Shown: in pieces, positions 26,355-43,263 of the stretch
Layout: each line of letters begins with the position of its first letter
Numbering within the stretch: the stretch's first letter is position 1
DNA from: Candidatus Omnitrophota bacterium
GTDB taxonomy: Bacteria > Omnitrophota > Gorgyraeia > Gygaellales > Profunditerraquicolaceae
NCBI GenBank assembly: GCA_035402765.1
Contig: DAONDX010000009.1
Location: 10,350-74,349, forward strand
DNA: 64,000 bases
Direction: 5' to 3'
The notes under the pieces: model-generated
What the model saw: only the letters and a program-made list of their open reading frames with translations
What the model was told of the DNA's origin: nothing
Database searches by the model: none
Translations under genes and position numbers: made by a program

Positions 26355-26870
26355 ATGTTATGTGATATCTGCGGTAAAAATCCGGCCACCGTGCATTTGA
26401 CCGAAATTATTGATGAGCAAATGAATGAGCTGCATCTGTGCGAAGATTGCGCCAGGAATAAGAGCGCGGCGATGGAGCAGCAGTTTGGCTTAAGTGATTT
26501 GCTGGCGGGGATGGCGGATTTTGAGAAGCCTTCCAGCAAAGAGGAAGAGGTGGTTACTGTTAAGTGCCCTAGTTGCGGTTTAACCTATGCTGACTTTAAG
26601 AAAATCGGGCGTCTGGGTTGCGGTGATTGCTACAATACTTTTCGTAAATACCTGGCTCCTTTGTTAAAACGTATACACGGTTCCAACCAGCATATTGGCA
26701 AGAACCCGGCCAAAATTAAAACTTCCGCCAGGGTTTATAAAAAGAAATCCGGTTTACCGGAATTAAAGAATCAGCTGCAAAAGGCGATTTCCGAAGAAGC
26801 TTTTGAAGAAGCAGCGCGTCTGCGCGACCAGATCAAAGAGTTGGAAGCTAAACAGGAAAAAGAAAGCTAA
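26355..26870 (+). CDS. mcsA: McsA-like protein (zinc-finger and UVR motif activator of McsB)
   Basis: Tandem CxxC zinc-ribbon motifs (CDICG...CEDC; CPSCG...CGDC) are followed by a C-terminal UVR motif FEEAARLRDQIKELE. Confidence 0.75.
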   Translation: MLCDICGKNPATVHLTEIIDEQMNELHLCEDCARNKSAAMEQQFGLSDLLAGMADFEKPSSKEEEVVTVKCPSCGLTYADFKKIGRLGCGDCYNTFRKYLAPLLKRIHGSNQHIGKNPAKIKTSARVYKKKSGLPELKNQLQKAISEEAFEEAARLRDQIKELEAKQEKES

Positions 26871-26874
26871 TCAG

Positions 26875-27927
26875 ATGCAGATTAACGATTTAATTAATCA
26901 TACCAGTGAATGGTTAAAGGGCACCGGGCCGAATTCGGACGTGGTGATCTCCAGCAGAATACGTCTGGCCAGGAACCTGAATAAATTTCCTTTTCCGCAT
27001 TGGGCATCCAAGCCGCAGTTAAACGCGGTGTTGGATAAAACCAGCCAGGCGATGGAAAAAGTAGACGCGCTTAAGAGCTCCACGCTTTTTGTTTTGGCCA
27101 GTTTAGACAGTATTGATAAACAGCTGCTCGTTGAAAGGCATCTGATGTCGATTGAGCATACGCAAAAGACAGAACAAAAAGCGGTGCTGATTAATGATGA
27201 AGAAAATATTTCCGTGATGATCAACGAAGAAGACCATCTGCGTATTCAGCTGATGCAGTCGGGTTTTAATCTTTTCGAGGCCTGGGAGATTATTAACGGT
27301 ATTGATGATGCTTTAGCCAAGCTTTTGGATTATGCGTATTTGGATGATTTCGGTTATCTTACCGCCTGCCCGACCAATACCGGTACGGGTATGCGCGGCT
27401 CAGTGATGTTACATTTGCCGGCATTAGTAATGAGCCGGCAGATCGAGCGGGTGTTAGCGGCGATTGCCAAATTGAGTTTTACTACCCGCGGGCTTTATGG
27501 CGAAGGCACGCAAGCCAGCGGTAATTTTTTTCAGATCTCTAACCAGGTTTCTTTAGGCCATAGCGAGAATGAGATTATTGAGAATATTAACGGTTTGATC
27601 CGTCAGATTATCGAGCAGGAGACGCAGGCCAGGGAGATTATGCTGGCTAAAAGCAAAGAGATCCTGGAGGATAGAGTCGGCCGTTCACTGGGCATTTTAA
27701 AAAGCGCCCGCATCATCACCAGCCAGGAGACGATTGAATTATTATCAATGGTCAGGCTAGGAAGCGATTTGGGCATGATTAAAGATATTGACCGGCGCAC
27801 GATCAATGAACTTTTTATTATTACGCAACCGGCACATTTGCAGAAGCTGGAGAATGTCAAGCTTTCCAGCGACCAGAGGGATTTAAAAAGGGCGGAATTA
27901 ATAAGGAAGAAGCTAAATTTATTATAA
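26875..27927 (+). CDS. mcsB: Protein-arginine kinase McsB (ATP:guanido phosphotransferase family)
   Basis: The phosphagen-kinase catalytic domain pattern is present (CPTNTGTGMRGSVMLHLP). It immediately follows mcsA. Confidence 0.85.
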   Translation: MQINDLINHTSEWLKGTGPNSDVVISSRIRLARNLNKFPFPHWASKPQLNAVLDKTSQAMEKVDALKSSTLFVLASLDSIDKQLLVERHLMSIEHTQKTEQKAVLINDEENISVMINEEDHLRIQLMQSGFNLFEAWEIINGIDDALAKLLDYAYLDDFGYLTACPTNTGTGMRGSVMLHLPALVMSRQIERVLAAIAKLSFTTRGLYGEGTQASGNFFQISNQVSLGHSENEIIENINGLIRQIIEQETQAREIMLAKSKEILEDRVGRSLGILKSARIITSQETIELLSMVRLGSDLGMIKDIDRRTINELFIITQPAHLQKLENVKLSSDQRDLKRAELIRKKLNLL

Positions 27928-27950
27928 TGATCCTGTACCTAGGCACTCGA

Positions 27951-28030
27951 AAAATTCTCTGGAATTTTATCGTAGGTTCAGGATAAATTCGCGGAGGCTC
28001 CGGTTTGCCGGAGCTATCGCTGGCATCATC
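27951..28030 (+). promoter_or_regulatory. Conserved upstream element (copy 2) in the mcsB-clpC intergenic region
   Basis: Three blocks AAAATTCTCT / GGATAAATTCGC / GCTATCGCT occur with the same spacing as at 20755-20830, upstream of htpX. Confidence 0.5.
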
Positions 28031-28071
28031 ATTTGATGTTGCAAGCGATCCGCTCATTTAGGAGATCAACC

Positions 28072-30492
28072 ATGTTTAATCGTTTTACGGAAAGAGCAAG
28101 AAAAGTAATCATTTTAGCTAAGGAAGAGGCCCGGCGTTTTAATCACGATTACATCGGTACTGAGCATATCCTTTTGGGATTAATCCGCGAAGGGGAAGGA
28201 GTAGCGGCGGCGGTATTGCAAAAGCTGGAGGTTTCACTTGAAAATATCCGCCTGGAGATTGAAAAGCTGGTCCAACCCGGTCCGACTACTCAAATTATCG
28301 GGGATATTCCTTTTACTCCGCGGGCTAAAAAAGCTTTAGAGCTTGCCGCCGAAGAAGCCCGTTCTTTGGGGCATAATTATATCGGTACGGAACATCTTTT
28401 ACTGGGTTTAATCCGGGAAGGCGAGGGGATCGCTTCGCAGGTTTTATTAAATTTAGGCATGGATTTAAATTCTGTGCGAAATGAAGTGATGAGCCTTTTG
28501 GGTTCGGCTTTACCGGGGATGAGCCCGCAAGGGGCCTCCGCATCAAAATCTAAGACTCCGGCCCTGGATGCTTTCGGGCGGGATCTTACGGCTTTGGCCC
28601 GTGAAAATAAATTGGATCCGGTAATTGACCGTTCGCAGGAAATTGAACGGGTCGTTCAGATCTTAAGCCGCCGGACTAAAAATAACCCGGTACTGTTAGG
28701 TGAAGCGGGGGTAGGAAAAACTGCGATCGTGGAAGGTTTGGCGCAGCTAATTATCCTGGGGAATATCCCGGAGGTTTTAAGAGGCAAGCGGATTGTAGTT
28801 TTGGACCTGGCTTTAATGGTCGCCGGTACTAAATACCGCGGACAGTTTGAGGAAAGAATTAAAGCGATTATGGAGGAGATTAAACGTTCCCAGGATGTAA
28901 TTATCTTTATCGATGAATTGCATACCTTAGTGGGGGCAGGCGCGGCCGAAGGGGCGATCGATGCTTCTAATATTATGAAGCCGGCGCTTTCCCGCGGAGA
29001 GATGCAATGTATCGGGGCCACGACCATCAATGAATACCGTAAATACATCGAGAAGGACGCGGCTTTAGAGCGCCGTTTTCAGACGATTATGGTCGAACCG
29101 CCGACGGTAGAGCAGACGGTTGAGATCTTAAAAGGCCTGCGCGATAAATACGAAGCGCACCACCGGGTTACTTTTAAGGATGAAGCTCTGGAGGCTGCCG
29201 CGGTATTGAGTGATCGTTATATTACAGGAAGGTTTATGCCCGATAAAGCGATCGACCTGATTGATGAAGCCGGATCCCGCGCGCGTTTAAATGTTTTGAT
29301 TGTTCCGGACAATATTAAGAGGATCGAAGCTAATGTCGAATCATTAAGAAAAGAAAAAGAAGCTTATATTAAAAGCCAGGATTTTGAAAAAGCGGCTTCC
29401 CTGCGGGATCAGGAACGTTCCTCCCGCCAGGAGTTGGAACGGTTAAATAAAGAATGGAGCCAGGCTAAAGATAAAATGCGCCCGGAGGTAACCGCCGAGG
29501 ATATTGCCAAAATTTTAGCGCAATGGACCGGGATTCCCGTTTTCAGATTAGAGGAAAAAGAAAGCGAGAAGCTGCTTAAGATCGAAGAGGAACTGCATAA
29601 GCGCGTGGTGGGCCAAAATGAAGCAATCGAAGCCATTGCTCACGCGGTGAGGCGTTCACGGGCCGGGATTAAAGATCCTAAGCGGCCGATAGGTTCATTT
29701 ATCTTCCTAGGTCCTACCGGGGTTGGTAAAACTCTCCTGGCCCGCGCTTTAGCGGAATTTATGTTCGGCGATCAGGATGCGTTGCTGCAGTTGGATATGT
29801 CGGAATATATGGAAAAATTTAATGTTTCACGTTTGATCGGTGCCCCTCCGGGGTATGTAGGATACGAAGAGGGCGGACAGCTTACAGAACGTGTACGCCG
29901 CAGGCCTTATGCGGTTATACTTTTGGATGAGATTGAAAAAGCTCACCCGGATGTTTTTAGTTTGTTGCTTCAGGTTTTTGAAGAAGGCCGCCTTACCGAC
30001 AGTTTCGGCCGGAAGGTAAACTTTAAAAATACGATTATTATTATGACTTCGAATGTCGGTGCTGAACTTATCCGTAAGACCGGCTCGCTGGGTTTTAAGT
30101 CGCAAAAAGAAGAGGGCACTTACCAGGATATGAAAGAGAAACTCCTGGAATCTGTTAAACATGCTTTTAAGCCTGAATTTTTAAACCGTATCGATGATAT
30201 TATTGTTTTTAGGCAGTTGATCCGCGAGGATCTGACTAAGATCATCGATATTGAAATCGGTTATGTTATTCAGCGCCTAAAGGAACAAAAAATAAGTTTG
30301 GAGGTCAGTCAGGAGGCCAAAGATCTTTTAATTGAAAAAGGATTTGATCCGGTATTTGGCGCCCGGCCTTTAAAAAGAACGATTCAAAGGTACCTGGAAG
30401 ATTCCCTGGCTAATGAGATTATTTCCAAGAAATTTAAGGAGGGCTCTTTGATTAAAGTAACGCGTAAAAATGAAGAGCTTATTTTTGAATAA
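28072..30492 (+). CDS. clpC: ATP-dependent Clp protease ATP-binding subunit ClpC
   Basis: Duplicated Clp_N repeats, two AAA+ modules (GEAGVGKTAIVEGLA; GPTGVGKTLLARALA) and a UVR linker are present. Confidence 0.95.
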   Translation: MFNRFTERARKVIILAKEEARRFNHDYIGTEHILLGLIREGEGVAAAVLQKLEVSLENIRLEIEKLVQPGPTTQIIGDIPFTPRAKKALELAAEEARSLGHNYIGTEHLLLGLIREGEGIASQVLLNLGMDLNSVRNEVMSLLGSALPGMSPQGASASKSKTPALDAFGRDLTALARENKLDPVIDRSQEIERVVQILSRRTKNNPVLLGEAGVGKTAIVEGLAQLIILGNIPEVLRGKRIVVLDLALMVAGTKYRGQFEERIKAIMEEIKRSQDVIIFIDELHTLVGAGAAEGAIDASNIMKPALSRGEMQCIGATTINEYRKYIEKDAALERRFQTIMVEPPTVEQTVEILKGLRDKYEAHHRVTFKDEALEAAAVLSDRYITGRFMPDKAIDLIDEAGSRARLNVLIVPDNIKRIEANVESLRKEKEAYIKSQDFEKAASLRDQERSSRQELERLNKEWSQAKDKMRPEVTAEDIAKILAQWTGIPVFRLEEKESEKLLKIEEELHKRVVGQNEAIEAIAHAVRRSRAGIKDPKRPIGSFIFLGPTGVGKTLLARALAEFMFGDQDALLQLDMSEYMEKFNVSRLIGAPPGYVGYEEGGQLTERVRRRPYAVILLDEIEKAHPDVFSLLLQVFEEGRLTDSFGRKVNFKNTIIIMTSNVGAELIRKTGSLGFKSQKEEGTYQDMKEKLLESVKHAFKPEFLNRIDDIIVFRQLIREDLTKIIDIEIGYVIQRLKEQKISLEVSQEAKDLLIEKGFDPVFGARPLKRTIQRYLEDSLANEIISKKFKEGSLIKVTRKNEELIFE

Positions 30493-31277
30493 TGTTTAAT
30501 CTATTTTTCATGGATTTGGGGCGTAAAGTACTTTCTTTTATGTACTTCTTAGGCGGTTTAGCCAGCTTAACCGGCCAGACGGCGTATCAGACTTTTAAAC
30601 CTCCGTATAAATATGACCATATCATTGAGCAGTCTAAAAAAGCCGGTTATGACAGCCTGCCGATTGTTTCGGTTGTCGCTTTGTTTATCGGTTTTATTTT
30701 CGCTTTGCAGTTCGGTTATTTTATGCAACGCATCGGTTCGGAGATGTATATTGCCAGTCTAGTGGCTTTGGCGATTGTGCGGGAACTGGGCCCGGTAATT
30801 ACGGCTTTGATTGTTGCCGGAAGAGTCGGCGCGGCCAACACCGCAGAACTGGGGTCAATGCAGGTCACCGAGCAAATCGACGCTTTGGAAACTTTAGCGA
30901 CTAACCCGGTAAAATATTTAGTAGTGCCGCGTTTTGTAGCGTTAGGGTTCATGCTTCCTTTGTTGACTTTATATGCCAATCTTGTCGGGATCGCGGGCAG
31001 CTATCTTATCTGTGTTTTTAAATTAGGAATTACCAGCAGCATGTATCGGAATATGACTTTTTCCGCCCTGCTGCATAAAGATCTATTTACCGGATTATTT
31101 AAGGCCTGGATTTTCGGGATGGTAATCGCCCTGGTCAGTTGTTATGAAGGCTTTAACGTTGAAGGCGGAGCGGTGGGGGTAGGCCGGGCGACTACCCGTT
31201 CGGTAGTTTTTAGCTTTTTGATGATTTTGGCCGCGGATTGTATTATTACCGCGCTATTTTATTTTATCTTTCCTTAA
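30492..31277 (+). CDS. mlaE: Mla ABC transporter permease
   Basis: The sequence is MlaE-like with multiple TM helices, and the ATG overlaps the clpC stop. Confidence 0.8.
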   Translation: MFNLFFMDLGRKVLSFMYFLGGLASLTGQTAYQTFKPPYKYDHIIEQSKKAGYDSLPIVSVVALFIGFIFALQFGYFMQRIGSEMYIASLVALAIVRELGPVITALIVAGRVGAANTAELGSMQVTEQIDALETLATNPVKYLVVPRFVALGFMLPLLTLYANLVGIAGSYLICVFKLGITSSMYRNMTFSALLHKDLFTGLFKAWIFGMVIALVSCYEGFNVEGGAVGVGRATTRSVVFSFLMILAADCIITALFYFIFP

Positions 31278-31279
31278 AA

Positions 31280-32041
31280 ATGATCGAAATACAGAATTTA
31301 AGTAAAAAGTTTAATAACAATCTGGTTCTGGATGGATTAAGCCTGGATGTTGCCACCGGTCAAACCTGTGTAATTATCGGCAGATCCGGTTGCGGTAAAT
31401 CCGTTTTACTTAAGACTATCGTAGGATTATTGAAACCGGATGCGGGCCGGGTTTTAGTTGAAGGTAAAGAAGTGGGTAAGCTACAGGAACTGGAGCTGGT
31501 GGCTTTACGTTCAAAAATCAGCATGGTTTTTCAGGGCGGGGCGCTTTTTGATTCAATGGATGTGACGGAAAATGTCGGGTTTTCGCTGCTGGAGCATACG
31601 CACTTAAACCGTAAAGAAATTTTAGGCCGGGTAGAGGAATCTTTGTCTTTGGTTGGTTTAGGCGGTATCGGTAATCTTATGCCCTCAGAGTTAAGCGGGG
31701 GGATGAAGAAGCGCGTGGCTTTGGCCAGGGCAATCTGTATCCGCCCGGAAATTATTCTTTATGATGAGCCGACCACCGGAGTTGATCCGATCACCGGTGA
31801 TAGTATTAATGAATTGATCCGTTCCTTGCATGATAAATTGCAGGTTACTTCAGTAGTCGTTACTCACGATATGAAAAGCGCTTATCATATTGCCGATAAG
31901 ATTGCGATGATGTATAAAGGAAAAATAATTTTAGAAGGCGCTCCTGATGAGATTCAGAAGACTCAGGATCCGGTGGTACACCAGTTTATTAACGGGCTTT
32001 CTAAGGGTCCGATTACTGAAATTGTCGATACTTTTAAATAA
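31280..32041 (+). CDS. mlaF: Mla ABC transporter ATP-binding protein
   Basis: Walker A GRSGCGKS and signature LSGGMKKR are present. Confidence 0.85.
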   Translation: MIEIQNLSKKFNNNLVLDGLSLDVATGQTCVIIGRSGCGKSVLLKTIVGLLKPDAGRVLVEGKEVGKLQELELVALRSKISMVFQGGALFDSMDVTENVGFSLLEHTHLNRKEILGRVEESLSLVGLGGIGNLMPSELSGGMKKRVALARAICIRPEIILYDEPTTGVDPITGDSINELIRSLHDKLQVTSVVVTHDMKSAYHIADKIAMMYKGKIILEGAPDEIQKTQDPVVHQFINGLSKGPITEIVDTFK

Positions 32042-32053: not shown

Positions 32054-32668
32054 ATGATTTTTGGTAAAACTAAATTAGAGCTTAAGGTAGGCACTTTTGT
32101 TTTTATCGGTCTTATCGTTTTAGTTATTTTTGTGTTATCCATCGGCGGATTTAAAACCTGGAGTTCGGGTTATAAGGTTAATTTGATTTTTAATTTTGCC
32201 AACGGGGTGAGGATCGGAGCGCCTGTGCGTTTTGCCGGTGTGGATGTGGGGGTAGTCAAAAACATCAATCTGCAGTTTAACCCGGATAAAGACCATTCGG
32301 ATGTGCGTCTGGAAGTTTGGATCAGGGATACGGTTAAGATCCCGGTTGATTCTACGGTCTGGATAAATACTTTGGGGTTGTTGGGGGAGAAATACGTAGA
32401 GGTGATGCCGGGTAAAGATTCCGCTCATATCCTTAAGGCGAATCAGGATTTAGCCGGGATTGATCCTGTGCCTACACATGAGTTATTTAGTAAAGCCGAA
32501 GCGATTATGGGGAATTTAGATAACGGAATCGCTAAAATCGTAAATAAAGAAGGCACGCTAGGCCGGCTGCTTTATGATGAAAAAATTTATAATGAATTAG
32601 AAGCCTTAGTTACGGATGTGCGTAAAAATCCCTGGAAGTTATTAATTAAGACTAAAGAAAAAAAATAA
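32054..32668 (+). CDS. mlaD: MlaD (MCE-domain periplasmic protein)
   Basis: An N-terminal TM is followed by an MCE domain. Confidence 0.8.
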   Translation: MIFGKTKLELKVGTFVFIGLIVLVIFVLSIGGFKTWSSGYKVNLIFNFANGVRIGAPVRFAGVDVGVVKNINLQFNPDKDHSDVRLEVWIRDTVKIPVDSTVWINTLGLLGEKYVEVMPGKDSAHILKANQDLAGIDPVPTHELFSKAEAIMGNLDNGIAKIVNKEGTLGRLLYDEKIYNELEALVTDVRKNPWKLLIKTKEKK

Positions 32669-32741: not shown

Positions 32742-34142
32742 ATGGTGAAGACTAAAACCATTTTTAGCTGTTCGGCTTGCGGTTATCAATCGCCTAAATG
32801 GCTGGGGCGGTGCCCGGATTGTAACAACTGGAATACTTTCAGTGAAGAAGACTATGCTCCGGTTTCTTCAAACAGCAAAGAGCGGGTGAGTTTATATAAA
32901 GACGGACCGGTGCTTTTGAAAGATGTGGTGGCCAGGGATGAAGACAGGCTAAAGACTAATATTGTTGAGCTGGACCGGGTTTTAGGCGGAGGGATTGTCC
33001 GCGGATCCGTAATTTTGATCGGCGGAGATCCCGGGGTAGGAAAATCTACTATCTCTCTGCAGGTTTCCAATCACCTGACTAAGCAGGGGATCGGAGTGCT
33101 TTATGTCAGCGGTGAAGAATCGGTAGCCCAGACTAAGTTACGCGCAAAACGTTTAGGTGAATCCGGAACCGATAACCTGTATATCGTCAATCAAACAGAT
33201 CTTTCTTTAATCATTGAATATATAAAAAAATTAAAACCTCAGGTTGTGGTGATTGATTCTATCCAGGTGGTTTTTGATCCAATGATCAGTTCCTCTCCGG
33301 GCAGCGTAAGCCAGGTCAGGGAATGCGCCGCCAGCCTTACGCAATTAGCTAAAACTACCGGAACTTCAATTTTTATTATCGGCCATGTAACCAAAGAAGG
33401 CACGCTGGCTGGCCCGCGCGTTTTAGAGCATATCGTAGACACCGTGCTTTATTTTGAAGGCGACCGTTTTGCGATCTACAGAATATTGCGCGCGGTAAAG
33501 AACCGGTTTGGCTCGACTAATGAGATCGGGGTATTTGAAATGGCTCCGGAGGGGTTACTGGAAGTAAAAAATCCTTCCGAGATCTTTCTTTCTGAGCGGC
33601 CGTCTAATGTTTCCGGCACTATTGTTACTTCCATCCTGGAAGGTTCCCGGCCTTTATTGGTTGAGATCCAATCTTTAGTTTCCAGAAGCAGTTTTGGTTA
33701 TGCGCGCCGCCGCGCGCAAGGTTTTGATTTTAACCGGTTATCTTTATTGGTTGCGGTTCTGGAAAAACGCATGGGTTTGGCTTTGGAGGCTGAAGATATA
33801 TTTATTAATGTTACCGGCGGGATTAAGATTGAAGATCCGGCGGCGGATCTGGCGGTCTGCGCGGTGATTGCTTCCAGTTTTCGCGATCAGGAAGTGCTGC
33901 CTAAAGCGGTAGTTTTGGGAGAAGTAGGATTAAGCGGAGAAATCAGAAGCATTTCGCAGGTGCTTACGCGGATCAATGAAGCCGAGAAGTTGGGCTTCCA
34001 GCATTGTATTCTGCCCAAAAACAGCATTAAGAACCTTAAATTAAAAAAATCGGATATGGAGATTATCGCCGTTTCGACTTTAAAAGAAGCCTTAGATATT
34101 ATTCTAAAATCATCAATCAAGCAGCAAGGCATTTCTGGTTAA
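32742..34142 (+). CDS. radA: DNA repair protein RadA/Sms
   Basis: An N-terminal zinc ribbon CSACGY...CPDC, a RecA-like Walker A GDPGVGKST, KNRFG and a C-terminal Lon-like domain are present. Confidence 0.9.
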   Translation: MVKTKTIFSCSACGYQSPKWLGRCPDCNNWNTFSEEDYAPVSSNSKERVSLYKDGPVLLKDVVARDEDRLKTNIVELDRVLGGGIVRGSVILIGGDPGVGKSTISLQVSNHLTKQGIGVLYVSGEESVAQTKLRAKRLGESGTDNLYIVNQTDLSLIIEYIKKLKPQVVVIDSIQVVFDPMISSSPGSVSQVRECAASLTQLAKTTGTSIFIIGHVTKEGTLAGPRVLEHIVDTVLYFEGDRFAIYRILRAVKNRFGSTNEIGVFEMAPEGLLEVKNPSEIFLSERPSNVSGTIVTSILEGSRPLLVEIQSLVSRSSFGYARRRAQGFDFNRLSLLVAVLEKRMGLALEAEDIFINVTGGIKIEDPAADLAVCAVIASSFRDQEVLPKAVVLGEVGLSGEIRSISQVLTRINEAEKLGFQHCILPKNSIKNLKLKKSDMEIIAVSTLKEALDIILKSSIKQQGISG

Positions 34143-34168
34143 GAAGTTACCTGGCGTTTATGGTTAAG

Positions 34169-34299
34169 CCGCGTTAAGTTGAATTGCGTGGGTGTCTGTT
34201 GGGTAACGGAGAATAGCGCTGGTGTCCCTTAATATGGGCGCGTGGATATGCCATTGCACCCGACGCTAGTTGGAATTGCGTCGGTGTTGTGTACGTACA
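34169..34299 (+). promoter_or_regulatory. Leader with two copies of a hairpin motif (loop TTRGTTGRAATT) and a 12-bp palindrome GTGTACGTACAC upstream of yacL
   Basis: The hairpins are CCGCG-ttaagttgaatt-GCGTGG at 34169-34191 and CGACGC-tagttggaatt-GCGTCG at 34261-34283, each followed by GTGT. The palindrome at 34288-34299 abuts the RBS. Confidence 0.4.
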
Positions 34300-34314
34300 C
34301 AAGGAGGCAAACAG

Positions 34315-35295
34315 ATGAATTTATTATTAGCACGGCTTTTGTTTATTTTTGGCAGCATGTTTATCGGCTATCAGGCAACGGTAGTCGGAGGTAACGGTCT
34401 GGCGGGTATAATGATCGGTGCGTTGGCAGCGATGATAATGATTTTTATTGAAGTAGGCTTGCGTAAAGTTTCAGTCAGCGGTTTATCCAGCGCGGTATTC
34501 GGCTTAATTTTAGGTTTGATCATGGCTAAGTTAGTCGGAGATGCTTTTAGCCTGGCTCCAGTGGATGCCGGTACGCTTTCCCGGATCCGGGTGGGATTAA
34601 CTTTGATCTTTTGTTATTTGGGCATGGTAATGGCTTTGCGCGGAAAAGATGAATTTAATATTATTATTCCTTATGTGCGCTTGCGCCGGCAGGATCAATC
34701 GCAGGATGTCATTCTCCTGGATACCAGCGTAATTATTGACGGAAGGATCGTGGATATCTGTAAAACGCGTTTTTTAGGCGGAAAAGTAGTTATCCCTAAA
34801 TTTGTGCTTAGAGAATTGCAGCAGATCGCGGATTCTACCGATCCGATCAAACGGCAACGCGGCAGACGGGGTTTGGAGATTTTGAATACTATTCAAAACG
34901 AACCGGGGATGGATATTGCTATTCATGAACAGGATTTCACGGAGACCTCAGAAGTAGATGCGAAATTAGTTTTGTTAGCTAAGTTGCTGGAAGCTAAAAT
35001 CCTGACCGTAGATTTTAATTTAAATCGCGTAGCCAGCATTCAGGGGATTAAAGTATTGAATATTAATGAGTTGGCCAATGCCCTTAAACCGGTGGTTTTC
35101 CCCGGGGAAGAGATGAATATCAAGTTGATTAAAGAAGGCAAGGAGCATAACCAGGCGGTAGGCTATCTGGATGACGGTACGATGGTGGTAGTGGAAGATG
35201 CCCGGCGTTTAATCGGCCAGGATGTTAAGGTAGCGGTCACTTCAGTTTTGCAAACCCAGGCCGGCCGGATGATCTTTACCAAAGTTGAAAAATAA
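34315..35295 (+). CDS. yacL: Membrane-anchored PIN and TRAM domain protein (YacL family)
   Basis: N-terminal TM helices are followed by a PIN domain ([14 protein letters not shown]) and a C-terminal TRAM-like beta-barrel. The start is at 34315 after RBS AAGGAGG. Confidence 0.75.
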
Positions 35296-35981
35296 TGCTT
35301 AGCGCGATTATTGTGGCTGCCGGAAGCGGCAGGCGATTAAAATCTGTCGTCTCCAAACCTTTGGTTAAAATCGGTAAATTGCCGGTAATTAATTATTCTT
35401 TGAGTGTTTTAGACAAACATCCGGCGATTAGCGAGATTATCGTGGTAGTCAATGCTCAGAACCGCCCGGCGATCAAACGCCTGCTTAATAATTGCTCTTT
35501 TAAAAAAGTTAAGCCTTTGGTGCTCGGTGGGAAGCGGCGGCAGGATTCAGTCTATCGGGGGTTAAAAGCGGTCAGCGTAAACAGCGCTTGGGTGTTGATC
35601 CATGATGCCGCCCGGCCGTTCATCGATAAGGCAATGATATCTTCAGTCGTTTCGGCGGCTAAAAAAACCGGCTCAGCCGTTGTGGCTGTGCAACCAAAAG
35701 CAACGATAAAATTATCGCAAAAGAATAATATCGTTCAGAAAACTTTAGACCGGGAAAAACTTTGGGAAATTCAGACTCCGCAGGTTTTCAAAAAAGAATT
35801 AATTTGGCGGGCCTATGAAAAGTATGCCGGTAGCTGTGTTACTGATGATGCGGCTTTGATCGAAAAATTGGGCAGGCCAGTTGAGCTGGTCAGGGGTAAG
35901 TATGAAAATATCAAGATTACTACGGCTGAAGATCTGCTGTTGGCCGGATTAATTGCTGAAAGGTTAAAAAATGCGGTATAA
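35295..35981 (+). CDS. ispD: 2-C-methyl-D-erythritol 4-phosphate cytidylyltransferase
   Basis: IIVAAGSGRRL and the IspD fold are present. Confidence 0.85.
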   Translation: MLSAIIVAAGSGRRLKSVVSKPLVKIGKLPVINYSLSVLDKHPAISEIIVVVNAQNRPAIKRLLNNCSFKKVKPLVLGGKRRQDSVYRGLKAVSVNSAWVLIHDAARPFIDKAMISSVVSAAKKTGSAVVAVQPKATIKLSQKNNIVQKTLDREKLWEIQTPQVFKKELIWRAYEKYAGSCVTDDAALIEKLGRPVELVRGKYENIKITTAEDLLLAGLIAERLKNAV

Positions 35982-36453
35982 AATTGGTATAGGTTATGAT
36001 ATCCACCGCCTGGTTGAAGGAAGAAAGCTGCTTTTAGGGGCAGTGGAGATTCCTTATTCTAAAGGCCTGCTGGGGCATTCCGACGGGGATGCGCTCATCC
36101 ATGCGCTTTGCGATGCGATATTAGGCGCTTTAGCTTTCGGTGATATCGGCGAACATTTCCCGGATACGGATCCTAAATATAAAGATATTGCCAGCAGCCA
36201 GCTGTTAACCATGGTTAAGGAATTTTTAGATGATAGCGGATATAAAATCAATAACCTGGATGTAATTATTATTGCCCAGGAGCCCAAATTGCTGCTTTAT
36301 AAAAAACAAATGCGGGAAAATATCTGTGAACTTTTAGGGATCCGGCGGGATCTTTTAAATATCAAAGCCAAGACTAATGAAGGGTTAGGGGAGCTGGGCC
36401 GTTGCGAAGCAATTGCCTGCTATGTTACAGCGTCATTAATTAAGGGAGAGTGA
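35971..36453 (+). CDS. ispF: 2-C-methyl-D-erythritol 2,4-cyclodiphosphate synthase
   Basis: [10 protein letters not shown] and [10 protein letters not shown] match the IspF metal site. Confidence 0.9.
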
Positions 36454-36454: not shown

Positions 36455-37135
36455 ATGGCTTATCTTATCTGCATTTTTATTATATTATTAACGATATTTC
36501 TAATTAAGCTGATACTTATTTCCGTATTCTTTTATGCGGATATCCGGGCGGCGCAGAAAAGAGATCCGGCAGCCAAGAGTTTTCTGGAGGTAATTTTACT
36601 TTACCCTGGCTTGCACGCTTTAATTTATTATCGTATTGCGCATGCTTTCTATAGCATAAGGTTATTTTTTTTAGCGCGCCTGTTATCTCAAATTGCCAGG
36701 TTTTCTACCGGTATCGAGATCCATCCGGGAGCTCGAATCGGCAAGCGTTTTTTTATCGATCATGGGCTAGGGGTGGTGATCGGAGAGACGACGATTATTG
36801 GAAATGATGTTTTGCTTTATCAGGGCTCGACTTTAGGCGGTACCGGGATCGTCGGTGGTAAGCGCCATCCGACGATCGGTAATAATGTGGTGATCGGCGC
36901 CGGAGCCAAAGTTTTAGGCAATATTGTAATCGGAGATAATTCCTATATCGGAGCAAACGCGGTAGTGGTCAAAGATGTACCGCCGAATTCCACAGTGGTC
37001 GGTATTCCCGGTAGAATTACTAAACAGGATGGCAAAAAAATGGACACCGACCTGGACCATGCGCGGATACTGGACCCGATTATGCAGACGATTGAAGAAC
37101 TGCAGGATAGAATTAAGAATTTAGAGAAAAATTAA
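36455..37135 (+). CDS. cysE: Serine O-acetyltransferase
   Basis: A left-handed beta-helix with hexapeptide repeats and the SAT N-terminal region are present. Confidence 0.8.
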
Positions 37136-37222: not shown

Positions 37223-38662
37223 ATGCCTATCTTTATATATAATTCCCTCAAAAGAGAAAAAGAAGAATTTATTCCTCTGGACCCTAAAGGCAAAGAGGTT
37301 AAAATGTATGTCTGCGGCCCGACGGTTTATGATGCGCCGCATATCGGCCACGCCCGCAGCGCTTACATATTTGATGTAGTCAGAAGGTATTTAGAATACC
37401 GGGACTATAAAGTTAAGTTTGTCAGAAATGTGACGGATGTTGATGATAAAATTATTGATAAAGCGAAAAAAGAATATGCGGGAGAAGATCTGAATTCTGC
37501 CGTGAGCAAAGTTTCTGCCAAATATCTTGATCTCTACCATGAAGATATGAAAAGCTTAGGCATTCTTGATCCGGATGTTGAGCCTAAGGCTACCGAATAT
37601 GTATGCCCGGATAAACCTTTAATGCAGAAATTTATCCAGCAATTGATTGATAAGGGCTGCGCCTATGTTTCCGAAGGCGATGTGTATTTTGATATCAAAA
37701 AAGCCAAAGGCTATGGCAAGTTGTCTAACCAGGCGATAGAAAAAATGGAATCCGGAGCAAGGATCGCGCTCGGTGAAAAAAAGAAAGATCCGCTGGATTT
37801 CGCGTTATGGAAATCCGCTAAGCCCGGAGAGCCGGCTTGGGATAGCCCTTGGGGGCTTGGCCGTCCGGGCTGGCATATAGAGTGTTCGGTAATGAGTTCG
37901 GATATTTTAGGGGATGAATTTGATATTCACGGGGGAGGAATTGACCTTATTTTCCCGCACCATGAAAATGAAATCGCTCAGTCTGAGGGCGCCGGTAAAA
38001 AATTTGCCCATTACTGGATACATCACGGTTTACTGACCATTAATGGCCAGAAGATGTCCAAGTCTTTAGGGAATTTTATAACGGTAAAAGATTTTATTAA
38101 TAAACACAAATATTCTGATTTATTGAAACTGTTATTTCTTTCTACGCATTATTCCCACCCCGTAGATTATACAGAGGAAAAGGTCGAAGAAGCCAAAAGC
38201 GCCTACGCCGGGATTATAAACTTAATGCATAGGTTAGATAAGGAATACGGCTCTCGACAGAAGATTAGCGGAGGCGGCAGCGGAGCCATCCAGCAGTTTA
38301 AAATAAGATTTGATGAATACATGGATGATGATTTTAATACTCCCCGGGCTCTTTCTGTGCTTTTTGAAATGGTAAAACTTTGTAATATAGAGTTTGATAG
38401 TAAGGATGTCCATAAGGCAGAAAAATTAAATTACGCATTTTCAGTAATTAAAGAAATGGCAGAAATTTTAGGCTTGGATTTTATTATTGATGTCCCTAAA
38501 GAAATTTCTGATGATGACATAGAGTTTAAGATTTCCGCAAGGAAGGTTTTAAAGGGAGAAAAGAAATTTACTGAGGCTGATCAGGTTAGAAAAGAATTAG
38601 AGTCCAAAGGTATAATTCTAGAAGATACTAAAGATGGCACAACTTGGCGAAGAAAATTATGA
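37223..38662 (+). CDS. cysS: Cysteinyl-tRNA synthetase
   Basis: HIGHARS and KMSKS class I motifs are present. Confidence 0.95.
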   Translation: MPIFIYNSLKREKEEFIPLDPKGKEVKMYVCGPTVYDAPHIGHARSAYIFDVVRRYLEYRDYKVKFVRNVTDVDDKIIDKAKKEYAGEDLNSAVSKVSAKYLDLYHEDMKSLGILDPDVEPKATEYVCPDKPLMQKFIQQLIDKGCAYVSEGDVYFDIKKAKGYGKLSNQAIEKMESGARIALGEKKKDPLDFALWKSAKPGEPAWDSPWGLGRPGWHIECSVMSSDILGDEFDIHGGGIDLIFPHHENEIAQSEGAGKKFAHYWIHHGLLTINGQKMSKSLGNFITVKDFINKHKYSDLLKLLFLSTHYSHPVDYTEEKVEEAKSAYAGIINLMHRLDKEYGSRQKISGGGSGAIQQFKIRFDEYMDDDFNTPRALSVLFEMVKLCNIEFDSKDVHKAEKLNYAFSVIKEMAEILGLDFIIDVPKEISDDDIEFKISARKVLKGEKKFTEADQVRKELESKGIILEDTKDGTTWRRKL

Positions 38663-39267
38663 AAGGCAAATTCATCACATTTGAAGGCTCCGAGGGCTGC
38701 GGCAAAAGCACGCAGTCTGAGATGCTGTTTACTTATCTTAAAAGTAAAGGGCATAAGGTGATTTATTTGCGTGAGCCCGGCGGGGTAAAGTTAAGTGAAA
38801 ATATCAGGACAATCCTGCTGGATCCTAAAAATAAGATATCGGCTCCGGCTGAAACTTTACTTTATATGGCTGCCCGGGCCCAGGTTGTTGATGAGATAAT
38901 TAAGCCGGCCCTGGAAGAGGGTAAGACAGTGGTTTGCGACCGGTTTCTCGATTCAACTGTCGCTTACCAGGGGTTTGGGTTGGGTGTAGATATAAAGTTA
39001 ATTAAAGTTATCGGTGATTTTGCTACTCAAAGTATACAACCGGATTTGACTATTTTTTTAGACTTACCGCTTGAAAAGGGGCTAGAGTGCCGTAATAATT
39101 GCCCGGACCGCATTGAACAGCGTAGTTTAAGTTACCATGAAAAGGTCCGCCAGGGGTATCTGACGCTGGCCGAACAAGAGCCGGGCAGGATTAAAGTCGT
39201 AAAAGTTTTAGCGGATAAACTGGATACACAGAATAAAATCCGGGAGATCGTTCTCAATGCGTTTTAA
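38659..39267 (+). CDS. tmk: Thymidylate kinase
   Basis: P-loop FEGSEGCGKST is present. The ATG overlaps the cysS stop (ATGA). Confidence 0.85.
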   Translation: MKGKFITFEGSEGCGKSTQSEMLFTYLKSKGHKVIYLREPGGVKLSENIRTILLDPKNKISAPAETLLYMAARAQVVDEIIKPALEEGKTVVCDRFLDSTVAYQGFGLGVDIKLIKVIGDFATQSIQPDLTIFLDLPLEKGLECRNNCPDRIEQRSLSYHEKVRQGYLTLAEQEPGRIKVVKVLADKLDTQNKIREIVLNAF

Positions 39268-40216
39268 TGAAGTTTTAGGACATGACCGCGCGTTAAGCAT
39301 TGTTAAAGCGCATTTAGCTAATAACCGTTTTTCCGGAGCATATATCTTCAGCGGCCCGGAAGGGATCGGAAAGAAGATGGTGGCTAAAATTATCGCGCAA
39401 TATCTTAATTGCACCGGCCAAGGCGATTGGCCGTGTGAAAATTGCGGTTCATGTTTAAAGATCCAGAAAGAGCAGCATCCTGATCTGCATATAATTCAAA
39501 ATGAACAGTCCCAGATTAAAATCGAGGATATCCGCCAGATCCTAAGGCAGGCAAATTTTCGCCCGTATGAAGGCAGGGCTAAAGTTTTTATTATCGATAA
39601 TGCGCATAAATTAAATATTGAAGCGGCTAATTCTTTACTTAAAGTGTTAGAAGAGCCGCCTAAAGATGTGCTGATTATTTTAATTACCCATAAGCCTCAA
39701 AATATCATTAAAACCGTGCTTTCCCGCTGTAAGGTCATAAAATTTCCGCCTTTGGTCAGGTCTGAGTTAGAAGAAATTTTAGTAAAGCAATACGCTTTAG
39801 ATAGGACTTCGGCGCATTTTTTGGCTTATTACGCAGAAGGCCGTTTAGGTTTGGCTTTAAAATTAAAGGATACTCCTTTGTTGCAGGAAAAGAATAAGCT
39901 CTTCGATGCTTTTATCCTTTCGGCAAAACCTTTGGATCGGAGTATCATGAGCCAGAATAAAGAACAATTGCAGGTAAGCTTGAATATTCTGGCTTCCTGG
40001 TTTCGGGATATCTATTTATTGAAATGCGGAGCAAGCGAAAAAGAGACAATTCATTTAGACCGGCATAGCGATTTACTAAAGCTAATACCCAAGTTTTCTT
40101 TTAAGCAGCTGGATGATATTATGCTGGCGCTTTCAGAAAGCTCTTTGTATCTGGAAAAGAATATTAACAGTAAATTGCTTTTGCATAATTTGGGGGCGCA
40201 ACTATGGAAGGTATGA
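39257..40216 (+). CDS. holB: DNA polymerase III delta-prime subunit
   Basis: It is AAA+ clamp-loader-like (GPEGIGKKMVA) with a zinc module CTGQGDWPCENCGSC. Confidence 0.8.
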   Translation: MRFNEVLGHDRALSIVKAHLANNRFSGAYIFSGPEGIGKKMVAKIIAQYLNCTGQGDWPCENCGSCLKIQKEQHPDLHIIQNEQSQIKIEDIRQILRQANFRPYEGRAKVFIIDNAHKLNIEAANSLLKVLEEPPKDVLIILITHKPQNIIKTVLSRCKVIKFPPLVRSELEEILVKQYALDRTSAHFLAYYAEGRLGLALKLKDTPLLQEKNKLFDAFILSAKPLDRSIMSQNKEQLQVSLNILASWFRDIYLLKCGASEKETIHLDRHSDLLKLIPKFSFKQLDDIMLALSESSLYLEKNINSKLLLHNLGAQLWKV

Positions 40217-41010
40217 TCCTGGTTCAACTTAATAATTCCGGTATTGTTCAATTTTATCAGGCGGGTAATTTAAACTTAAAAGTCGGCGATTATGTGATTG
40301 TTGAACATGACCGAGGCCTGGATTGCGGCTGCGTAATCCCTAATTGTAAAGCGCATTGCGGGCATGAAGATATGCCTAAAGAGCTGCCTAAAAAAATAAT
40401 CCGCCTGGCCAAGGAAAGCGACCTTAAGCAGGTTGCGGATAATGCTATTCGCGCCAAAGAAGCGTTTAACGCCTGTGAAAAGAAGATCTTTGAGCACAAG
40501 CTGGATATGAAATTGGTAAAAGCGGAGTATTCTTTCGACCGCTCCAAGATCCTGTTTTATTTTACTTCTGACGGCCGGGTGGATTTCCGTGACCTGGTTA
40601 AAGATTTAGCTAAAGTATTTAAAGCTCGCATTGAATTAAGGCAGATCGGAGTCAGGGATGAAGCCCGGCTTTTCGGCGGGTACGGTTCCTGCGGACGTGA
40701 GCTTTGCTGTAAAAAATTCTTAAAAGATTTTGAGCCGGTAACCATCAAGATGGCTAAAGAAGAGGGGCTGCCGCTTAATCCTCCTAAAATTTCCGGATTA
40801 TGCGGCAGGTTAATGTGTTGTTTATCTTATGAATATGAAACTTATAAGCTGCTTTCTAAAGGATTGCCGCGCGAGGGTGAACATTTAAGTACCCCTGAAG
40901 GCAAGGGTAAAGTAATGAATGTAAATGTTTTTAAACGCCTGGTCGGCGTGCAGCTGGATGAAGGCGGTTATATCGAGGTAAGCTATAAGGAAAAAGAACA
41001 TGTCAAATAA
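40204..41010 (+). CDS. ricT: PSP1 C-terminal domain protein (RicT/YaaT family)
   Basis: A PSP1 domain with conserved Cys clusters (CGRELCC...CGRLMCC) is present. It follows holB, as in Bacillus. Confidence 0.75.
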   Translation: MEGMILVQLNNSGIVQFYQAGNLNLKVGDYVIVEHDRGLDCGCVIPNCKAHCGHEDMPKELPKKIIRLAKESDLKQVADNAIRAKEAFNACEKKIFEHKLDMKLVKAEYSFDRSKILFYFTSDGRVDFRDLVKDLAKVFKARIELRQIGVRDEARLFGGYGSCGRELCCKKFLKDFEPVTIKMAKEEGLPLNPPKISGLCGRLMCCLSYEYETYKLLSKGLPREGEHLSTPEGKGKVMNVNVFKRLVGVQLDEGGYIEVSYKEKEHVK

Positions 41011-42499
41011 ATTCTATATTACGACGCCTATTTATTATGTGAATGCTTCTCCGCATATCGGGCATTCTTATACCACTATCGCCGCGGATGTTTTAACCAG
41101 GTTTAAACGCCGGGTTTTGGGTAAAGAAAATGTCCGGTTCCTGACCGGTACCGATGAACACGGCCAAAAGATCCAGAAAGCCGCCGATGCCGCCAAACTT
41201 TCGGCCCAAAGTTTTGTCGATCAAACAAGCCAGCAGTTCAGGGACCTTTGGAAATCGCTGGATGTTTCTTATGACGATTTTATCCGTACGACACAGCCGC
41301 GGCATGTTAAAGTCGTGCAGAAGTGTTTGGAGATCATTTTTAAAAAGGGCGATATTTATGAAGGTAAATATGAAGGATTATATTGCACTCCTTGTGAAAC
41401 ATTCTGGCTTGAAGCCCAGGCTGTAGGAGGCTTGTGCCCGGATTGCCATCGGCCGGTGGAGCGGATTGTGGAAACCAACTACTTTTTTAAATTGACCAAA
41501 TACCAGGATTGGCTTTTAGGCTATCTTAGGGAGAACCCGGATTTTATTAAGCCCGGCAGCCGCTACGAAGAAACTCTGCGCTTTCTGGAGTTAAATAAAT
41601 TAAATGATTTATGTATTTCCCGGCCTAAAGAAAGGCTTAGTTGGGGGATACCTTTACCTTTTGCTCCGGAGCATGTGACCTATGTTTGGTTTGACGCTTT
41701 AGTCAATTATATTAGCGCAGTCGGTGAATTCGATGCCCGGGATAATTATGTTTCTAAATGGTGGCCGGCTGAATTACATTTGATGGCCAAGGATATTTTA
41801 AGGCAGCATACAGTGTATTGGCCGATAATGCTGCACGCTTTAAATATCGAGCTTCCTAAGAGAGTGTTTGCGCATGGCTGGTGGATGTTGAATGAAGATA
41901 AGATGTCTAAATCCAGGGGTAACGTGGTTAATCCGCTTGAGATGGTGGAAAAATACGGTTTGGATGCCTATCGATATTTTCTTCTGCGGGAGGTTCCTTT
42001 CGGCCTGGACGGTAACTTTTCGGAAGAAGGGATCATTAAACGTTATAACAGCGATTTAGCCAATGACCTGGGGAATTTAGTTTATCGTACCCTGACAATG
42101 GTAGAGAAATATTTTGACGGAAATATTCCTGATCTAAAATTAAACGGCAGTACCAAATCGGTTGCAGAAATTTTAGCAAAGATAGAGCATTTGCCAGTGC
42201 GGGTTTTTTCGGCCCTGGATGAACAAAATTTTAGTTTGGCGCTGGAATCAATTTGGGAATTAATCGGCATGGCCAATAAGCATGTTGAAGAAACTAAACC
42301 TTGGAATTTAGCTAAAGAAAATAAGCAGGAAGACTTAAAAGAATTTATCCGCCTGTTAGTTGATGTGATCCGGGCAGTAGCCGATAAACTGGAAATTTTT
42401 ATTCCCCAGACCGCTGCATCGATCCAGGAGCAGTTTGTTGGAGATAAGGTTAAAAAAGGTAACCCGTTATTTCCGCGCATCGAAACTAAAAAGAAGTAG
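41000..42499 (+). CDS. metG: Methionyl-tRNA synthetase (short form, no C-terminal tRNA-binding domain)
   Basis: HIGHSYT and KMSKS are present, with a zinc knuckle CTPCE...CPDCH. Confidence 0.95.
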   Translation: MSNKFYITTPIYYVNASPHIGHSYTTIAADVLTRFKRRVLGKENVRFLTGTDEHGQKIQKAADAAKLSAQSFVDQTSQQFRDLWKSLDVSYDDFIRTTQPRHVKVVQKCLEIIFKKGDIYEGKYEGLYCTPCETFWLEAQAVGGLCPDCHRPVERIVETNYFFKLTKYQDWLLGYLRENPDFIKPGSRYEETLRFLELNKLNDLCISRPKERLSWGIPLPFAPEHVTYVWFDALVNYISAVGEFDARDNYVSKWWPAELHLMAKDILRQHTVYWPIMLHALNIELPKRVFAHGWWMLNEDKMSKSRGNVVNPLEMVEKYGLDAYRYFLLREVPFGLDGNFSEEGIIKRYNSDLANDLGNLVYRTLTMVEKYFDGNIPDLKLNGSTKSVAEILAKIEHLPVRVFSALDEQNFSLALESIWELIGMANKHVEETKPWNLAKENKQEDLKEFIRLLVDVIRAVADKLEIFIPQTAASIQEQFVGDKVKKGNPLFPRIETKKK

Positions 42500-42501
42500 T
42501 C

Positions 42502-43263
42502 ATGCTGATTGATACGCATTGTCATTTAGATTTTCCCGCCTTTGATCCGGACCGTGACCAGGTTATCCGGCGCGCCTTGGATACAGAAATAAAATATTTT
42601 ATTAATATTGGCGCCACCCTGGAGTCTTCGGCCGCCGCAGTAGCCCTGGCCGGCAAATACCCGGAAGTTTATGCCAGCGTCGGCGTGCATCCGCATGATG
42701 CGGATACTTTTGATCTGGCCGCGGAAGGCCTGTTAAGGCAGCTGGCCGCCGGAAAAAAAGTAGTGGCGATCGGAGAAACGGGGCTGGATTATTACCGGAA
42801 TCTCTCCAGCCGGGAAAATCAAAAGCGGGTATTTTGTAAACAGATTGATCTAGCCAAAGAGCTGGATTTACCACTAGTAATACATTCTCGGGAGGCTTTT
42901 GAAGAAACCCTGCAGATTTTAAAGCCGGCTTTACCTTTGCGGGCTGTAGTGCATTGTTTCTCCGGAGATGAGAATTTTTTAAAAGCCTGTTTGGATTACG
43001 GATTTTTTATTTCTTACACCTGTAATATTACTTATAAAAAAGCCGCATTTTTAAGAGAGATGGTTAATTTAACTCCCTTGGATAGGTTGATGCTGGAAAC
43101 TGACGCTCCTTATTTGTCTCCGGAAGGGTCGCGCGGCCAGCGCAATGAACCGGCTCAGATTGAATTATTAGCCCGGCAGGTCAGCCAAATTAAAGGGGTT
43201 AGTTTTGAGAAAATAGCGGATCAAACTACTTGTAACGCCAAAGGATTTTTTAATCTGAAATGA
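42502..43263 (+). CDS. tatD: TatD-family metal-dependent DNase
   Basis: IDTHCHLDF and conserved His/Asp/Glu metal ligands are present. Confidence 0.85.
   Translation: MLIDTHCHLDFPAFDPDRDQVIRRALDTEIKYFINIGATLESSAAAVALAGKYPEVYASVGVHPHDADTFDLAAEGLLRQLAAGKKVVAIGETGLDYYRNLSSRENQKRVFCKQIDLAKELDLPLVIHSREAFEETLQILKPALPLRAVVHCFSGDENFLKACLDYGFFISYTCNITYKKAAFLREMVNLTPLDRLMLETDAPYLSPEGSRGQRNEPAQIELLARQVSQIKGVSFEKIADQTTCNAKGFFNLK

Follow-up and report, generated by a model that had tools for sequence, protein, structure and literature searches.

The stretch analyzed here is a 64,000-nucleotide (nt) window of contig DAONDX010000009.1 (positions 10,350 to 74,349), from a Candidatus Omnitrophota bacterium of the Planctomycetes-Verrucomicrobia-Chlamydiae (PVC) group, and it carries the genes of the McsAB-ClpC protein arginine phosphorylation system within a long gene string of Bacillus-like order. 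All positions below are counted from the first letter of this window. Open reading frame (ORF) listing together with NCBIfam and Pfam scans confirmed all of the named genes, mcsA-mcsB-clpC-mlaEFD-radA-yacL-ispD-ispF-cysE-cysS-tmk-holB-ricT-metG-tatD, in one order and all on the plus strand. The string opens with lysS (22058–23512), a class II lysyl-tRNA synthetase recognized by its tRNA-synt_2 and OB-fold domains and by synteny in relatives. It is followed by a LolCE-like permease (23514–24725) and a LolD-like ATPase (24718–25398), whose best matches, TIGR02212 (328 bits) and TIGR02211 (266 bits), fall slightly under their equivalog cut-offs, and by the branched-chain amino acid aminotransferase gene ilvE (25484–26353; PRK08320, 464 bits against a cut-off of 363). 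Next come mcsA (26355–26870), encoding the activator of protein arginine kinase (NF053706, 172 bits, below the equivalog cut-off of 210), mcsB (26875–27927), encoding the 350-amino-acid protein arginine kinase itself (NF002194, 454 bits, above the cut-off of 385), and clpC (28072–30492), encoding an 806-amino-acid class I AAA+ unfoldase. The three transporter genes behind clpC, for a permease, an ATPase and an MCE protein in turn, are mlaE (30492–31277; TIGR00056, 236 bits, above the cut-off of 212), mlaF (31280–32041) and mlaD (32054–32668); the MlaF and MlaD models are the best matches of the latter two, at 223 and 91 bits, under equivalog cut-offs of 441 and 135.

The string then runs through the DNA repair gene radA/sms (32742–34142; TIGR00416, 613 bits, above the cut-off of 403) and a yacL-like PIN-domain gene (34315–35295), identified by a PIN match and by YCF81_N, PIN and faint TRAM matches in its relatives; its product is 45–56% identical to that of the gene between disA and ispD in Paenibacillus and Alicyclobacillus. 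After these lie ispD (35295–35981; TIGR00453), ispF (35971–36453; TIGR00151), cysE (36455–37135; TIGR01172), with no gltX between ispF and cysE in the window, cysS (37223–38662; TIGR00435), tmk (38659–39267; TIGR00041), holB (39257–40216; TIGR00678), ricT/yaaT (40204–41010; NF041131), metG (41000–42499; NF008900) and a tatD-family hydrolase gene (42502–43263; TIGR00010). Family scans extend the string downstream, on the same strand, through DUF362-ferredoxin, mtnA, thiL and tsaE (43260–46797), in an order that is kept in relatives. At most junctions the genes overlap or lie no more than 12 nt apart. The clpC stop codon overlaps the mlaE start (TAATG), stop and start codons likewise overlap among tmk, holB and ricT, and mcsA and mcsB are 4 nt apart. 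A sequence-only reading of this locus had ilvE abut mcsA with a 2-nt gap; the two genes do abut, with a gap of 1 nt (TAA at 26351–26353, G at 26354, ATG at 26355). Longer spacers separate lolD from ilvE (85 nt), mcsB from clpC (144 nt), mlaD from radA (73 nt), radA from yacL (172 nt) and cysE from cysS (87 nt). There is no compositional break, with GC content at 0.40–0.48 and GC skew positive throughout. The region is part of a ~25–27 kb co-directional, almost gap-free housekeeping string in an Omnitrophota genome.

The three proteins at the centre of this study are clear orthologues of their Bacillus counterparts. Residues 10–349 of McsB align to residues 13–353 of structure 8wtb_A at 325 bits, and near full-length alignments were also obtained to 6tv6 and 6fh1, all Bacillus-group structures. 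The NEEDH motif and a catalytic cysteine (C167 in B. subtilis) make up the McsB catalytic site (PMC11046695), and the window protein keeps the motif as well as the cysteine, here C165. Among 42 diverse family members, the window protein included, E118, E119, D120 and C165 do not vary, and N117 and H121 hardly vary. The McsB_C dimerization domain (PF27454) was found on the protein of a near-identical contig (L001) and on all close homologues, and the 8wtb_A alignment reaches residue 353. Directly upstream of mcsB, as the partner gene of the arginine kinase, mcsA encodes a protein laid out as two four-cysteine zinc motifs and a C-terminal UVR/coiled coil; its residues 1–165 align to the McsA chain 8wtb_B (119 bits), with the CxxC pairs kept in both zinc domains. 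One unbroken alignment (1060 bits) covers residues 1–797 of ClpC against the B. subtilis protein (3j3s), while ClpB structures score lower (777 bits at most), none of them as a single stretch passing the threshold. In the ClpP-docking loop, ‘gsLGFksq’ of the window protein is aligned with ‘kyVGFnvq’ of B. subtilis (LGF against VGF). Both GTEH repeats of the N-domain, which we take to form the phospho-arginine binding sites, are kept as ‘IGTEH(I/L)LLGL(I/V)REGEG’; Trentini and colleagues are said to have placed these sites, in 2016, at E32 and E106 of the B. subtilis ClpC N-domain. The GTEH residues would be necessary, and not sufficient, for reading phospho-arginine, because they are also kept in ClpC1 of bacteria that lack McsB. 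Taken together, every component of the McsAB-ClpC pathway for phospho-arginine tagging and degradation is encoded here in seemingly intact form, and we predict that the pathway is active.

The proposal that the order resembles the Bacillus chromosomal blocks held up in the family scans and against sampled Paenibacillus and Alicyclobacillus loci. In these Bacillota the reference block reads ctsR-mcsA-mcsB-clpC-radA-disA-...-yacL-ispD-ispF, and with nine genes in the same order and orientation the colinearity is far above chance. In comparison with the B. subtilis clpC operon and the genes downstream of it, mcsA, mcsB, clpC, radA, yacL, ispD, ispF, cysE and cysS share order and orientation; the differences are that the window lacks ctsR, a CtsR operator, disA and gltX, and has lolCD-ilvE upstream, mlaEFD between clpC and radA, and a diderm PVC host. 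In B. subtilis, lysS also lies upstream of the ctsR operon, and gltX-cysE-cysS follow yacL-ispD-ispF. The second part of the string, tmk to tatD, had likewise been called Bacillus-type. Here the resemblance is real, with ricT after holB and metG (metS) before tatD (yabD) as in B. subtilis 168, although a tmk-holB-tatD-family adjacency is also found in E. coli K-12 (tmk-holB-ycfH, where ycfH is of the TatD family). The B. subtilis block has yaaQ, yaaR, yabA, yabB, yazA, yabC and abrB intervening and lies elsewhere relative to the clpC block, whereas the five genes of the window are contiguous, with overlapping codons, and come directly after cysS. Mycobacterium tuberculosis has lysS-(lsr2)-clpC1 ... 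radA-disA ... carD-ispD-ispF-cysS1 over Rv3598c–Rv3580c. This proximity of lysS, clpC, radA, ispDF and cysS suggests that the backbone is older than the Firmicutes and not a Bacillus peculiarity. To our knowledge, Actinobacteria have no mcsAB and keep disA, the reverse of Omnitrophota, which have mcsAB and lack disA at the locus.

The sequence-only reading had also noted that no ctsR precedes mcsA and that disA is missing between radA and yacL, and both observations were borne out. Searches for the two genes covered the 64-kb window and up to 10 kb of flank on each side of every McsB locus sampled (see below). Pfam scans gave no CtsR or DisA match among window ORFs of at least 100 amino acids, and tblastn probes for the two proteins gave only noise against the window (E > 1). 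These probes were B. subtilis sequences, validated by strong matches in Bacillota control loci only: the CtsR probe matched next to mcsA, on its upstream side, in all 13 Bacillota loci, and the DisA probe matched after radA in every Bacillota locus extending far enough. Neither gene was found by tblastn in ~70 PVC loci or in 30 Omnitrophota metagenome contigs, even at E = 1e-3. A ctsR gene just outside the window had been considered as a way to close the regulatory gap; such a gene would not rescue it, since no ctsR occurs within 10 kb upstream of mcsA in any of the PVC loci whose contigs reach that far, and the window itself reaches 26 kb upstream. The CtsR operator (tandem heptad RGTCAAA-NAN-RGTCAAA) gave only matches with three mismatches, 11 in the window against 7.5 ± 2.5 expected in the shuffled window, a chance-level frequency, and none of these operator-like matches lies upstream of lysS, mcsA or clpC. 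The window contains no CIRCE element either. The locus thus has neither the ctsR gene leading mcsA nor the operator of a CtsR-controlled class III clpC operon.

That the host is an outer-membrane organism, as had been proposed, is well founded. In addition to the LolCE- and LolD-like genes, Pfam scans identified LptF/LptG on the minus strand (48777–50998), and genes of the type II secretion system and type IV pili (T2SS/T4P) are also in the window; because Lpt, Lol-like and T2SS/T4P genes occur together here, we regard the outer-membrane inference as sound. No MlaA, MlaB or MlaC was identified among the scanned window ORFs, and with MlaF and MlaD under their equivalog cut-offs the safest name for the system behind clpC is an MCE/MlaEFD-type lipid ABC transporter. 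A Bacillus-like order in a diderm could, taken alone, indicate a diderm Firmicute (Negativicutes, Halanaerobiales or Limnochordia), in which such synteny would be expected. We consider this hardly conceivable. The best 120 McsB homologues are 74–93% identical to the window protein and all organism-named ones belong to Candidatus Omnitrophota/Omnitrophica, a metagenome contig with an identical RadA has the same layout, every sampled Bacillota locus has ctsR where the window has none, and Bacillota McsB and ClpC form a distinct clade with 99% and 100% bootstrap support, respectively. A set of McsB cluster representatives at 50% identity, which includes one Opitutales protein and one animal taurocyamine kinase, was uninformative on taxonomic spread.

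To place the locus among its relatives, a diverse McsB alignment served as query against GTDB genomes, one for each species, and the best 80 loci were kept with up to 10 kb of flank on each side; the synteny table was made by tblastn and taxa were taken from record titles. The sample includes Omnitrophota, Planctomycetota (Pirellulales, Gemmataceae, Isosphaeraceae and the anammox genera Kuenenia, Jettenia and Scalindua), Verrucomicrobiota (Chthoniobacterales, Udaeobacter, Limisphaerales, Prosthecobacter) and Bacillota. Omnitrophota loci, with McsB identities of 46–93%, read lysS-lolC-lolD-ilvE-mcsA-mcsB-clpC-(X)-mlaEFD-radA-yacL-ispD-ispF-cysE-cysS, where X is a variable gene discussed below. 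Verrucomicrobiota loci read (lysS-lolC-)lolD-ilvE-mcsA-mcsB-clpC and, beyond ~2 kb occupied by genes on the opposite strand, mlaEFD-yacL. Anammox Planctomycetota have mcsA-mcsB-clpC-radA, one uncultured planctomycete (L035) has mcsAB-clpC-mlaEFD, and the Bacillota loci have ctsR-mcsA-mcsB-clpC-radA-disA-...-yacL-ispD-ispF. A metagenome scan with RicT as query returned 30 contigs of at least 12 kb (RicT identity 70–96%), all 30 of which keep mlaEFD-radA-yacL-ispDF-cysES-tmk-holB-ricT-metG-tatD-DUF362-mtnA-thiL-tsaE as far as each contig reaches. The contig with the identical RadA is a 22.9-kb metagenome contig from the Joint Genome Institute. As the layout is seen again in Omnitrophota loci and, for the most part, in Verrucomicrobiota, the apparent interruptions and losses are stable features of the lineage as a whole and not events in the window genome. 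The position of mlaEFD exactly between clpC and radA was read correctly at first, while the idea of a local insertion does not fit its distribution; in the same way, the three differences from Bacillus that had been singled out are real features, ancestral to the lineage and not specific to this genome. Separately, a tandem pair of mcsA-like genes was seen upstream of mcsB in three Gemmataceae and Isosphaeraceae loci (L030, L049, L055).

Another explanation for the order is that joint function has kept it or assembled it convergently, for example if McsAB-ClpC quality control were coupled to Mla/Lol trafficking and mlaEFD were an adaptive operon fusion. The overlap of the clpC stop with the mlaE start in the window, the presence of lolCD in the same string and the recurrence of clpC...mlaEFD in Omnitrophota, Verrucomicrobiota and the planctomycete L035 would fit this explanation. 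However, in Verrucomicrobiota clpC and mlaE are ~2 kb apart, with an opposite-strand XerC-like recombinase gene and a putative lipoprotein gene between them, and are therefore not co-transcribed; the deeper Omnitrophota have an extra variable gene at this junction, and locus L009 has no mlaEFD at the site after clpC. Other adjacencies, such as cysS-tmk and radA-yacL-ispD, are also without functional rationale, and we know of no functional link between McsAB-ClpC quality control and Mla/Lol transport. We therefore think it very unlikely that joint function accounts for the order.

The variable gene X of the deeper Omnitrophota, which is not in the window, encodes a membrane protein of 330–634 amino acids between clpC and mlaE. 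It was seen in L013, L016, L018, L019 and L020, and in shorter form in L009 and L021, and is fast-evolving; a membrane anchor lies at its N-terminus and a conserved tail, ‘...G(V/I/F)E.K..F’, at its C-terminus. It matched no NCBIfam or Pfam family beyond a faint YhdP/AsmA-like resemblance below threshold (20.8 bits); the protein may serve the MCE system as a partner in lipid transport. Some relatives also have a gene between mlaD and radA, a PilZ-T2SSE ATPase gene in L002 (15719–17107), and a ~1.4-kb mlaD-radA gap was likewise seen in L104, L109, L116 and L117.

The recommended phylogenies of McsB and ClpC were built from the proteins of the sampled loci by neighbour-joining on Kimura-corrected distances with 100 bootstraps; they are unrooted. 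Bacillota are set apart in both. The ClpC tree has one clade each for Omnitrophota, Verrucomicrobiota and the four Planctomycetota, all with 100% support, and the McsB tree broadly follows the phyla, apart from two strays (L059 and L021). On these protein sequences the trees exclude a recent transfer from Bacillota. Six loci titled Planctomycetales or Planctomycetia (L006, L008, L010, L011, L013, L015) cluster inside Omnitrophota and share Omnitrophota synteny, and two titled Bifidobacteriaceae or Bifidobacterium (L074, L083) cluster inside Verrucomicrobiota and share the synteny of that phylum; the labels of these eight are likely wrong, because gene trees and synteny both disagree with the titles.

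We consider it quite probable that the Bacillus likeness, including a CtsR-independent McsAB-ClpC pathway, reflects a very old gene neighbourhood that was inherited vertically and kept in its PVC form. The retained neighbourhood would comprise lysS ... (mcsAB-)clpC-radA-yacL-ispDF-cysES and tmk-holB-ricT ... metG-tatD, and its PVC form would have lolCD-ilvE upstream of mcsA, at the position of ctsR in Bacillota, an MCE/Mla-type transporter after clpC, and neither disA nor gltX. The main competitor is an ancient transfer of a Firmicute-type block (mcsAB-clpC-radA-yacL-ispDF-cysES) to an ancestor of Omnitrophota or of the PVC group, with later loss of ctsR and disA and insertion of diderm genes. 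A published view that places McsAB mainly in Gram-positives (PMC11046695), and the horizontal acquisition of mcsAB suggested for Chlamydia (PMC10128030), would be in keeping with such a transfer, as would two results of our own that weigh against vertical retention: Omnitrophota McsB is 47–50% identical to that of Bacillota and 46–53% to that of other PVC phyla, about equidistant, and the deep nodes of the unrooted trees are unsupported, which together leave room for an ancient transfer between phyla. Against a transfer, Bacillota are a separate, well-supported clade in both trees and each PVC phylum is coherent in ClpC, the block is made up of essential housekeeping genes present in single copy (radA, ispDF, cysS, lysS) that are seldom replaced en bloc, and no compositional anomaly is seen. 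Furthermore, lolCD-ilvE upstream and mlaEFD downstream are common to two PVC phyla, so that any transfer must predate their split. On balance we judge an ancient transfer to be unlikely.

Other points also count against vertical retention, or limit how far it can be taken. Most non-anammox Planctomycetota have mcsA-mcsB only, without an adjacent clpC or the rest of the string, so that any ancestral PVC state is putative. The sample consists of the 80 loci most similar to the query, and the taxon labels are record titles, some of them evidently wrong. The searches for ctsR and disA apply to the loci, that is, to the window and the flanks. The comparison with the second Bacillus block, tmk...tatD, takes the B. 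subtilis 168 gene order as general background. Finally, the operon structure is deduced from spacing and one promoter, and the spacers of 144, 73, 172 and 87 nt could hold internal promoters.

That promoter is a sigma-70 consensus sequence, TTGACA-17-TATAAT (22020–22048, plus strand), the only site in the 64-kb window to match at 12 of 12 positions. Only 9 nt separate its end from the lysS ATG, so that the lysS mRNA would be leaderless or have a leader of 1–3 nt. Of 18 Omnitrophota loci, 16 have a site ahead of lysS that matches at 11 or more of the 12 positions, and the 9-nt spacing to lysS is often kept; promoter-like sites were seen in L002, L004, L005, L006, L009, L011, L012, L018, L021 and L040. 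We propose that this is likely the main promoter at the head of the string. Two other window sites match at 11 of 12 positions, one ending 6 nt before a minus-strand gene that starts at 51770 and one ending 13 nt before a tRNA-Leu gene. Terminator-like hairpins are no more frequent in the window than in shuffled sequence. From this anatomy, the string would be transcribed largely from the lysS promoter, possibly with weaker internal promoters in the longer spacers, and mcsAB-clpC would be expressed alongside housekeeping genes and not through CtsR-mediated heat-shock derepression. Expression in the window is probably from the consensus sigma-70 promoter at lysS, unlike that from the CtsR-repressed promoters of B. 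subtilis. McsA-activated McsB would then phosphorylate arginines of damaged or regulatory proteins, and the ClpC N-domain would recognize the phospho-arginine and pass these substrates to ClpP, following the B. subtilis pathway and what has in part been shown for ClpC of Chlamydia.

The two longest spacers were examined for structure and conservation. The 172-nt spacer between radA and yacL (34143–34314, plus strand) holds three imperfect 24-nt direct repeats of 67–79% identity, and had been proposed as a repeat-containing leader replacing disA. The repeats are present, yet the spacer is not conserved, being only 6–20 nt long in most relatives, and it is unstructured, with no fold signal against shuffles (z = −0.4). 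Rfam searches of the whole window at gathering thresholds returned only the transfer-messenger RNA (tmRNA) and a tRNA, and nothing in this spacer. With weak repeats, no Rfam match or fold and a counterpart in relatives that is tiny or missing, we rejected a conserved regulatory RNA or leader here, and the spacer is no functional replacement for disA. The 144-nt spacer between mcsB and clpC (27928–28071, plus strand) is strongly structured, folding into two long hairpin domains at −55.8 kcal/mol (z = −4.6, with 0 of 200 shuffles folding as well) that leave the Shine-Dalgarno sequence unpaired. It is also lineage-specific: it was seen only in the window strain and L001, it cannot be aligned to relatives, it has no other copy, and the closest relatives have 43 nt (L002) and 71 nt (L004) at this position. 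The structure is not part of the conserved system. Gene callers place a 44-amino-acid ORF in this spacer on L001; this ORF is probably spurious.

Beyond the string, several features of the window were recorded. A 236-amino-acid ATP synthase ORF (609–1319) combines a b-subunit-like N-terminus with a delta/OSCP C-terminus and precedes the genes of the alpha, gamma and beta subunits. Within the T2SS/T4P cluster, a 719-amino-acid T2SSE ATPase (5157–7316) has an MshEN module and a C-terminal PilZ module, both of them cyclic di-GMP-binding modules. A 471-amino-acid ORF (53749–55164) fuses a Maf-like nucleotide pyrophosphatase (residues 19–204) to an M48 peptidase (residues 270–451), and a second, stand-alone M48 peptidase is encoded at 20865–21827. 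Located at 57633–58520 and 56406–56487 are smpB and then directly the tmRNA gene (155 bits; tag peptide ANTTVFNRLAPMATLMPAGVPALAFN), with tRNA-Leu(CAG) nearby on the minus strand.

The sequence-only reading regarded McsAB-ClpC alongside outer-membrane machinery as phylogenetically informative. The combination is real, though less exceptional than supposed, as it is known from Chlamydia trachomatis and is widespread in Planctomycetota and Verrucomicrobiota. C. trachomatis, an outer-membrane bacterium of the PVC group, has McsA/McsB (CT676/CT675) and ClpC (PMC10128030, PMC11708050), and its ClpCP2P1 degrades arginine-phosphorylated casein (PMC10128030), which makes the pathway logic plausible in the PVC superphylum. 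C. trachomatis resembles the window organism in being a PVC diderm that has all three proteins and lacks a clpC operon headed by ctsR. The chlamydial mcsAB is not linked to clpC, has tRNA genes on its flanks and has been suggested to come from horizontal transfer (PMC10128030, PMC11708050), whereas in the window mcsA-mcsB-clpC is contiguous and inside a conserved housekeeping string. A more ambitious proposal would make the pathway ancestral to the whole PVC superphylum, with the chlamydial copy inherited; in Omnitrophota it would be hard-wired, without CtsR, into a constitutive, near-leaderless ~27 kb housekeeping-envelope super-operon, and the Lol/Mla neighbourhood would be a real link between quality control and outer-membrane biogenesis. 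We regard this proposal as distinctly improbable.

The locus reveals no new mechanism or new kind of system and is a useful extension of known biology. Besides Gram-positives, a structural paper of 2024 lists McsAB homologues in no more than ‘some gram-negative Proteobacteria and rarely archaea’ (PMC11046695), and our McsB locus scan found them widely across Planctomycetota and Verrucomicrobiota. Intact McsA, McsB and ClpC across Omnitrophota, Verrucomicrobiota and Planctomycetota widen the range in which the pathway is expected, correct the common ‘Gram-positive only’ description of McsAB and bear on the origin of the chlamydial copy. The string is also one more case for the reconstruction of very old gene neighbourhoods, and offers a CtsR-free diderm setting in which the arginine-phosphorylation degradation tag could be studied.

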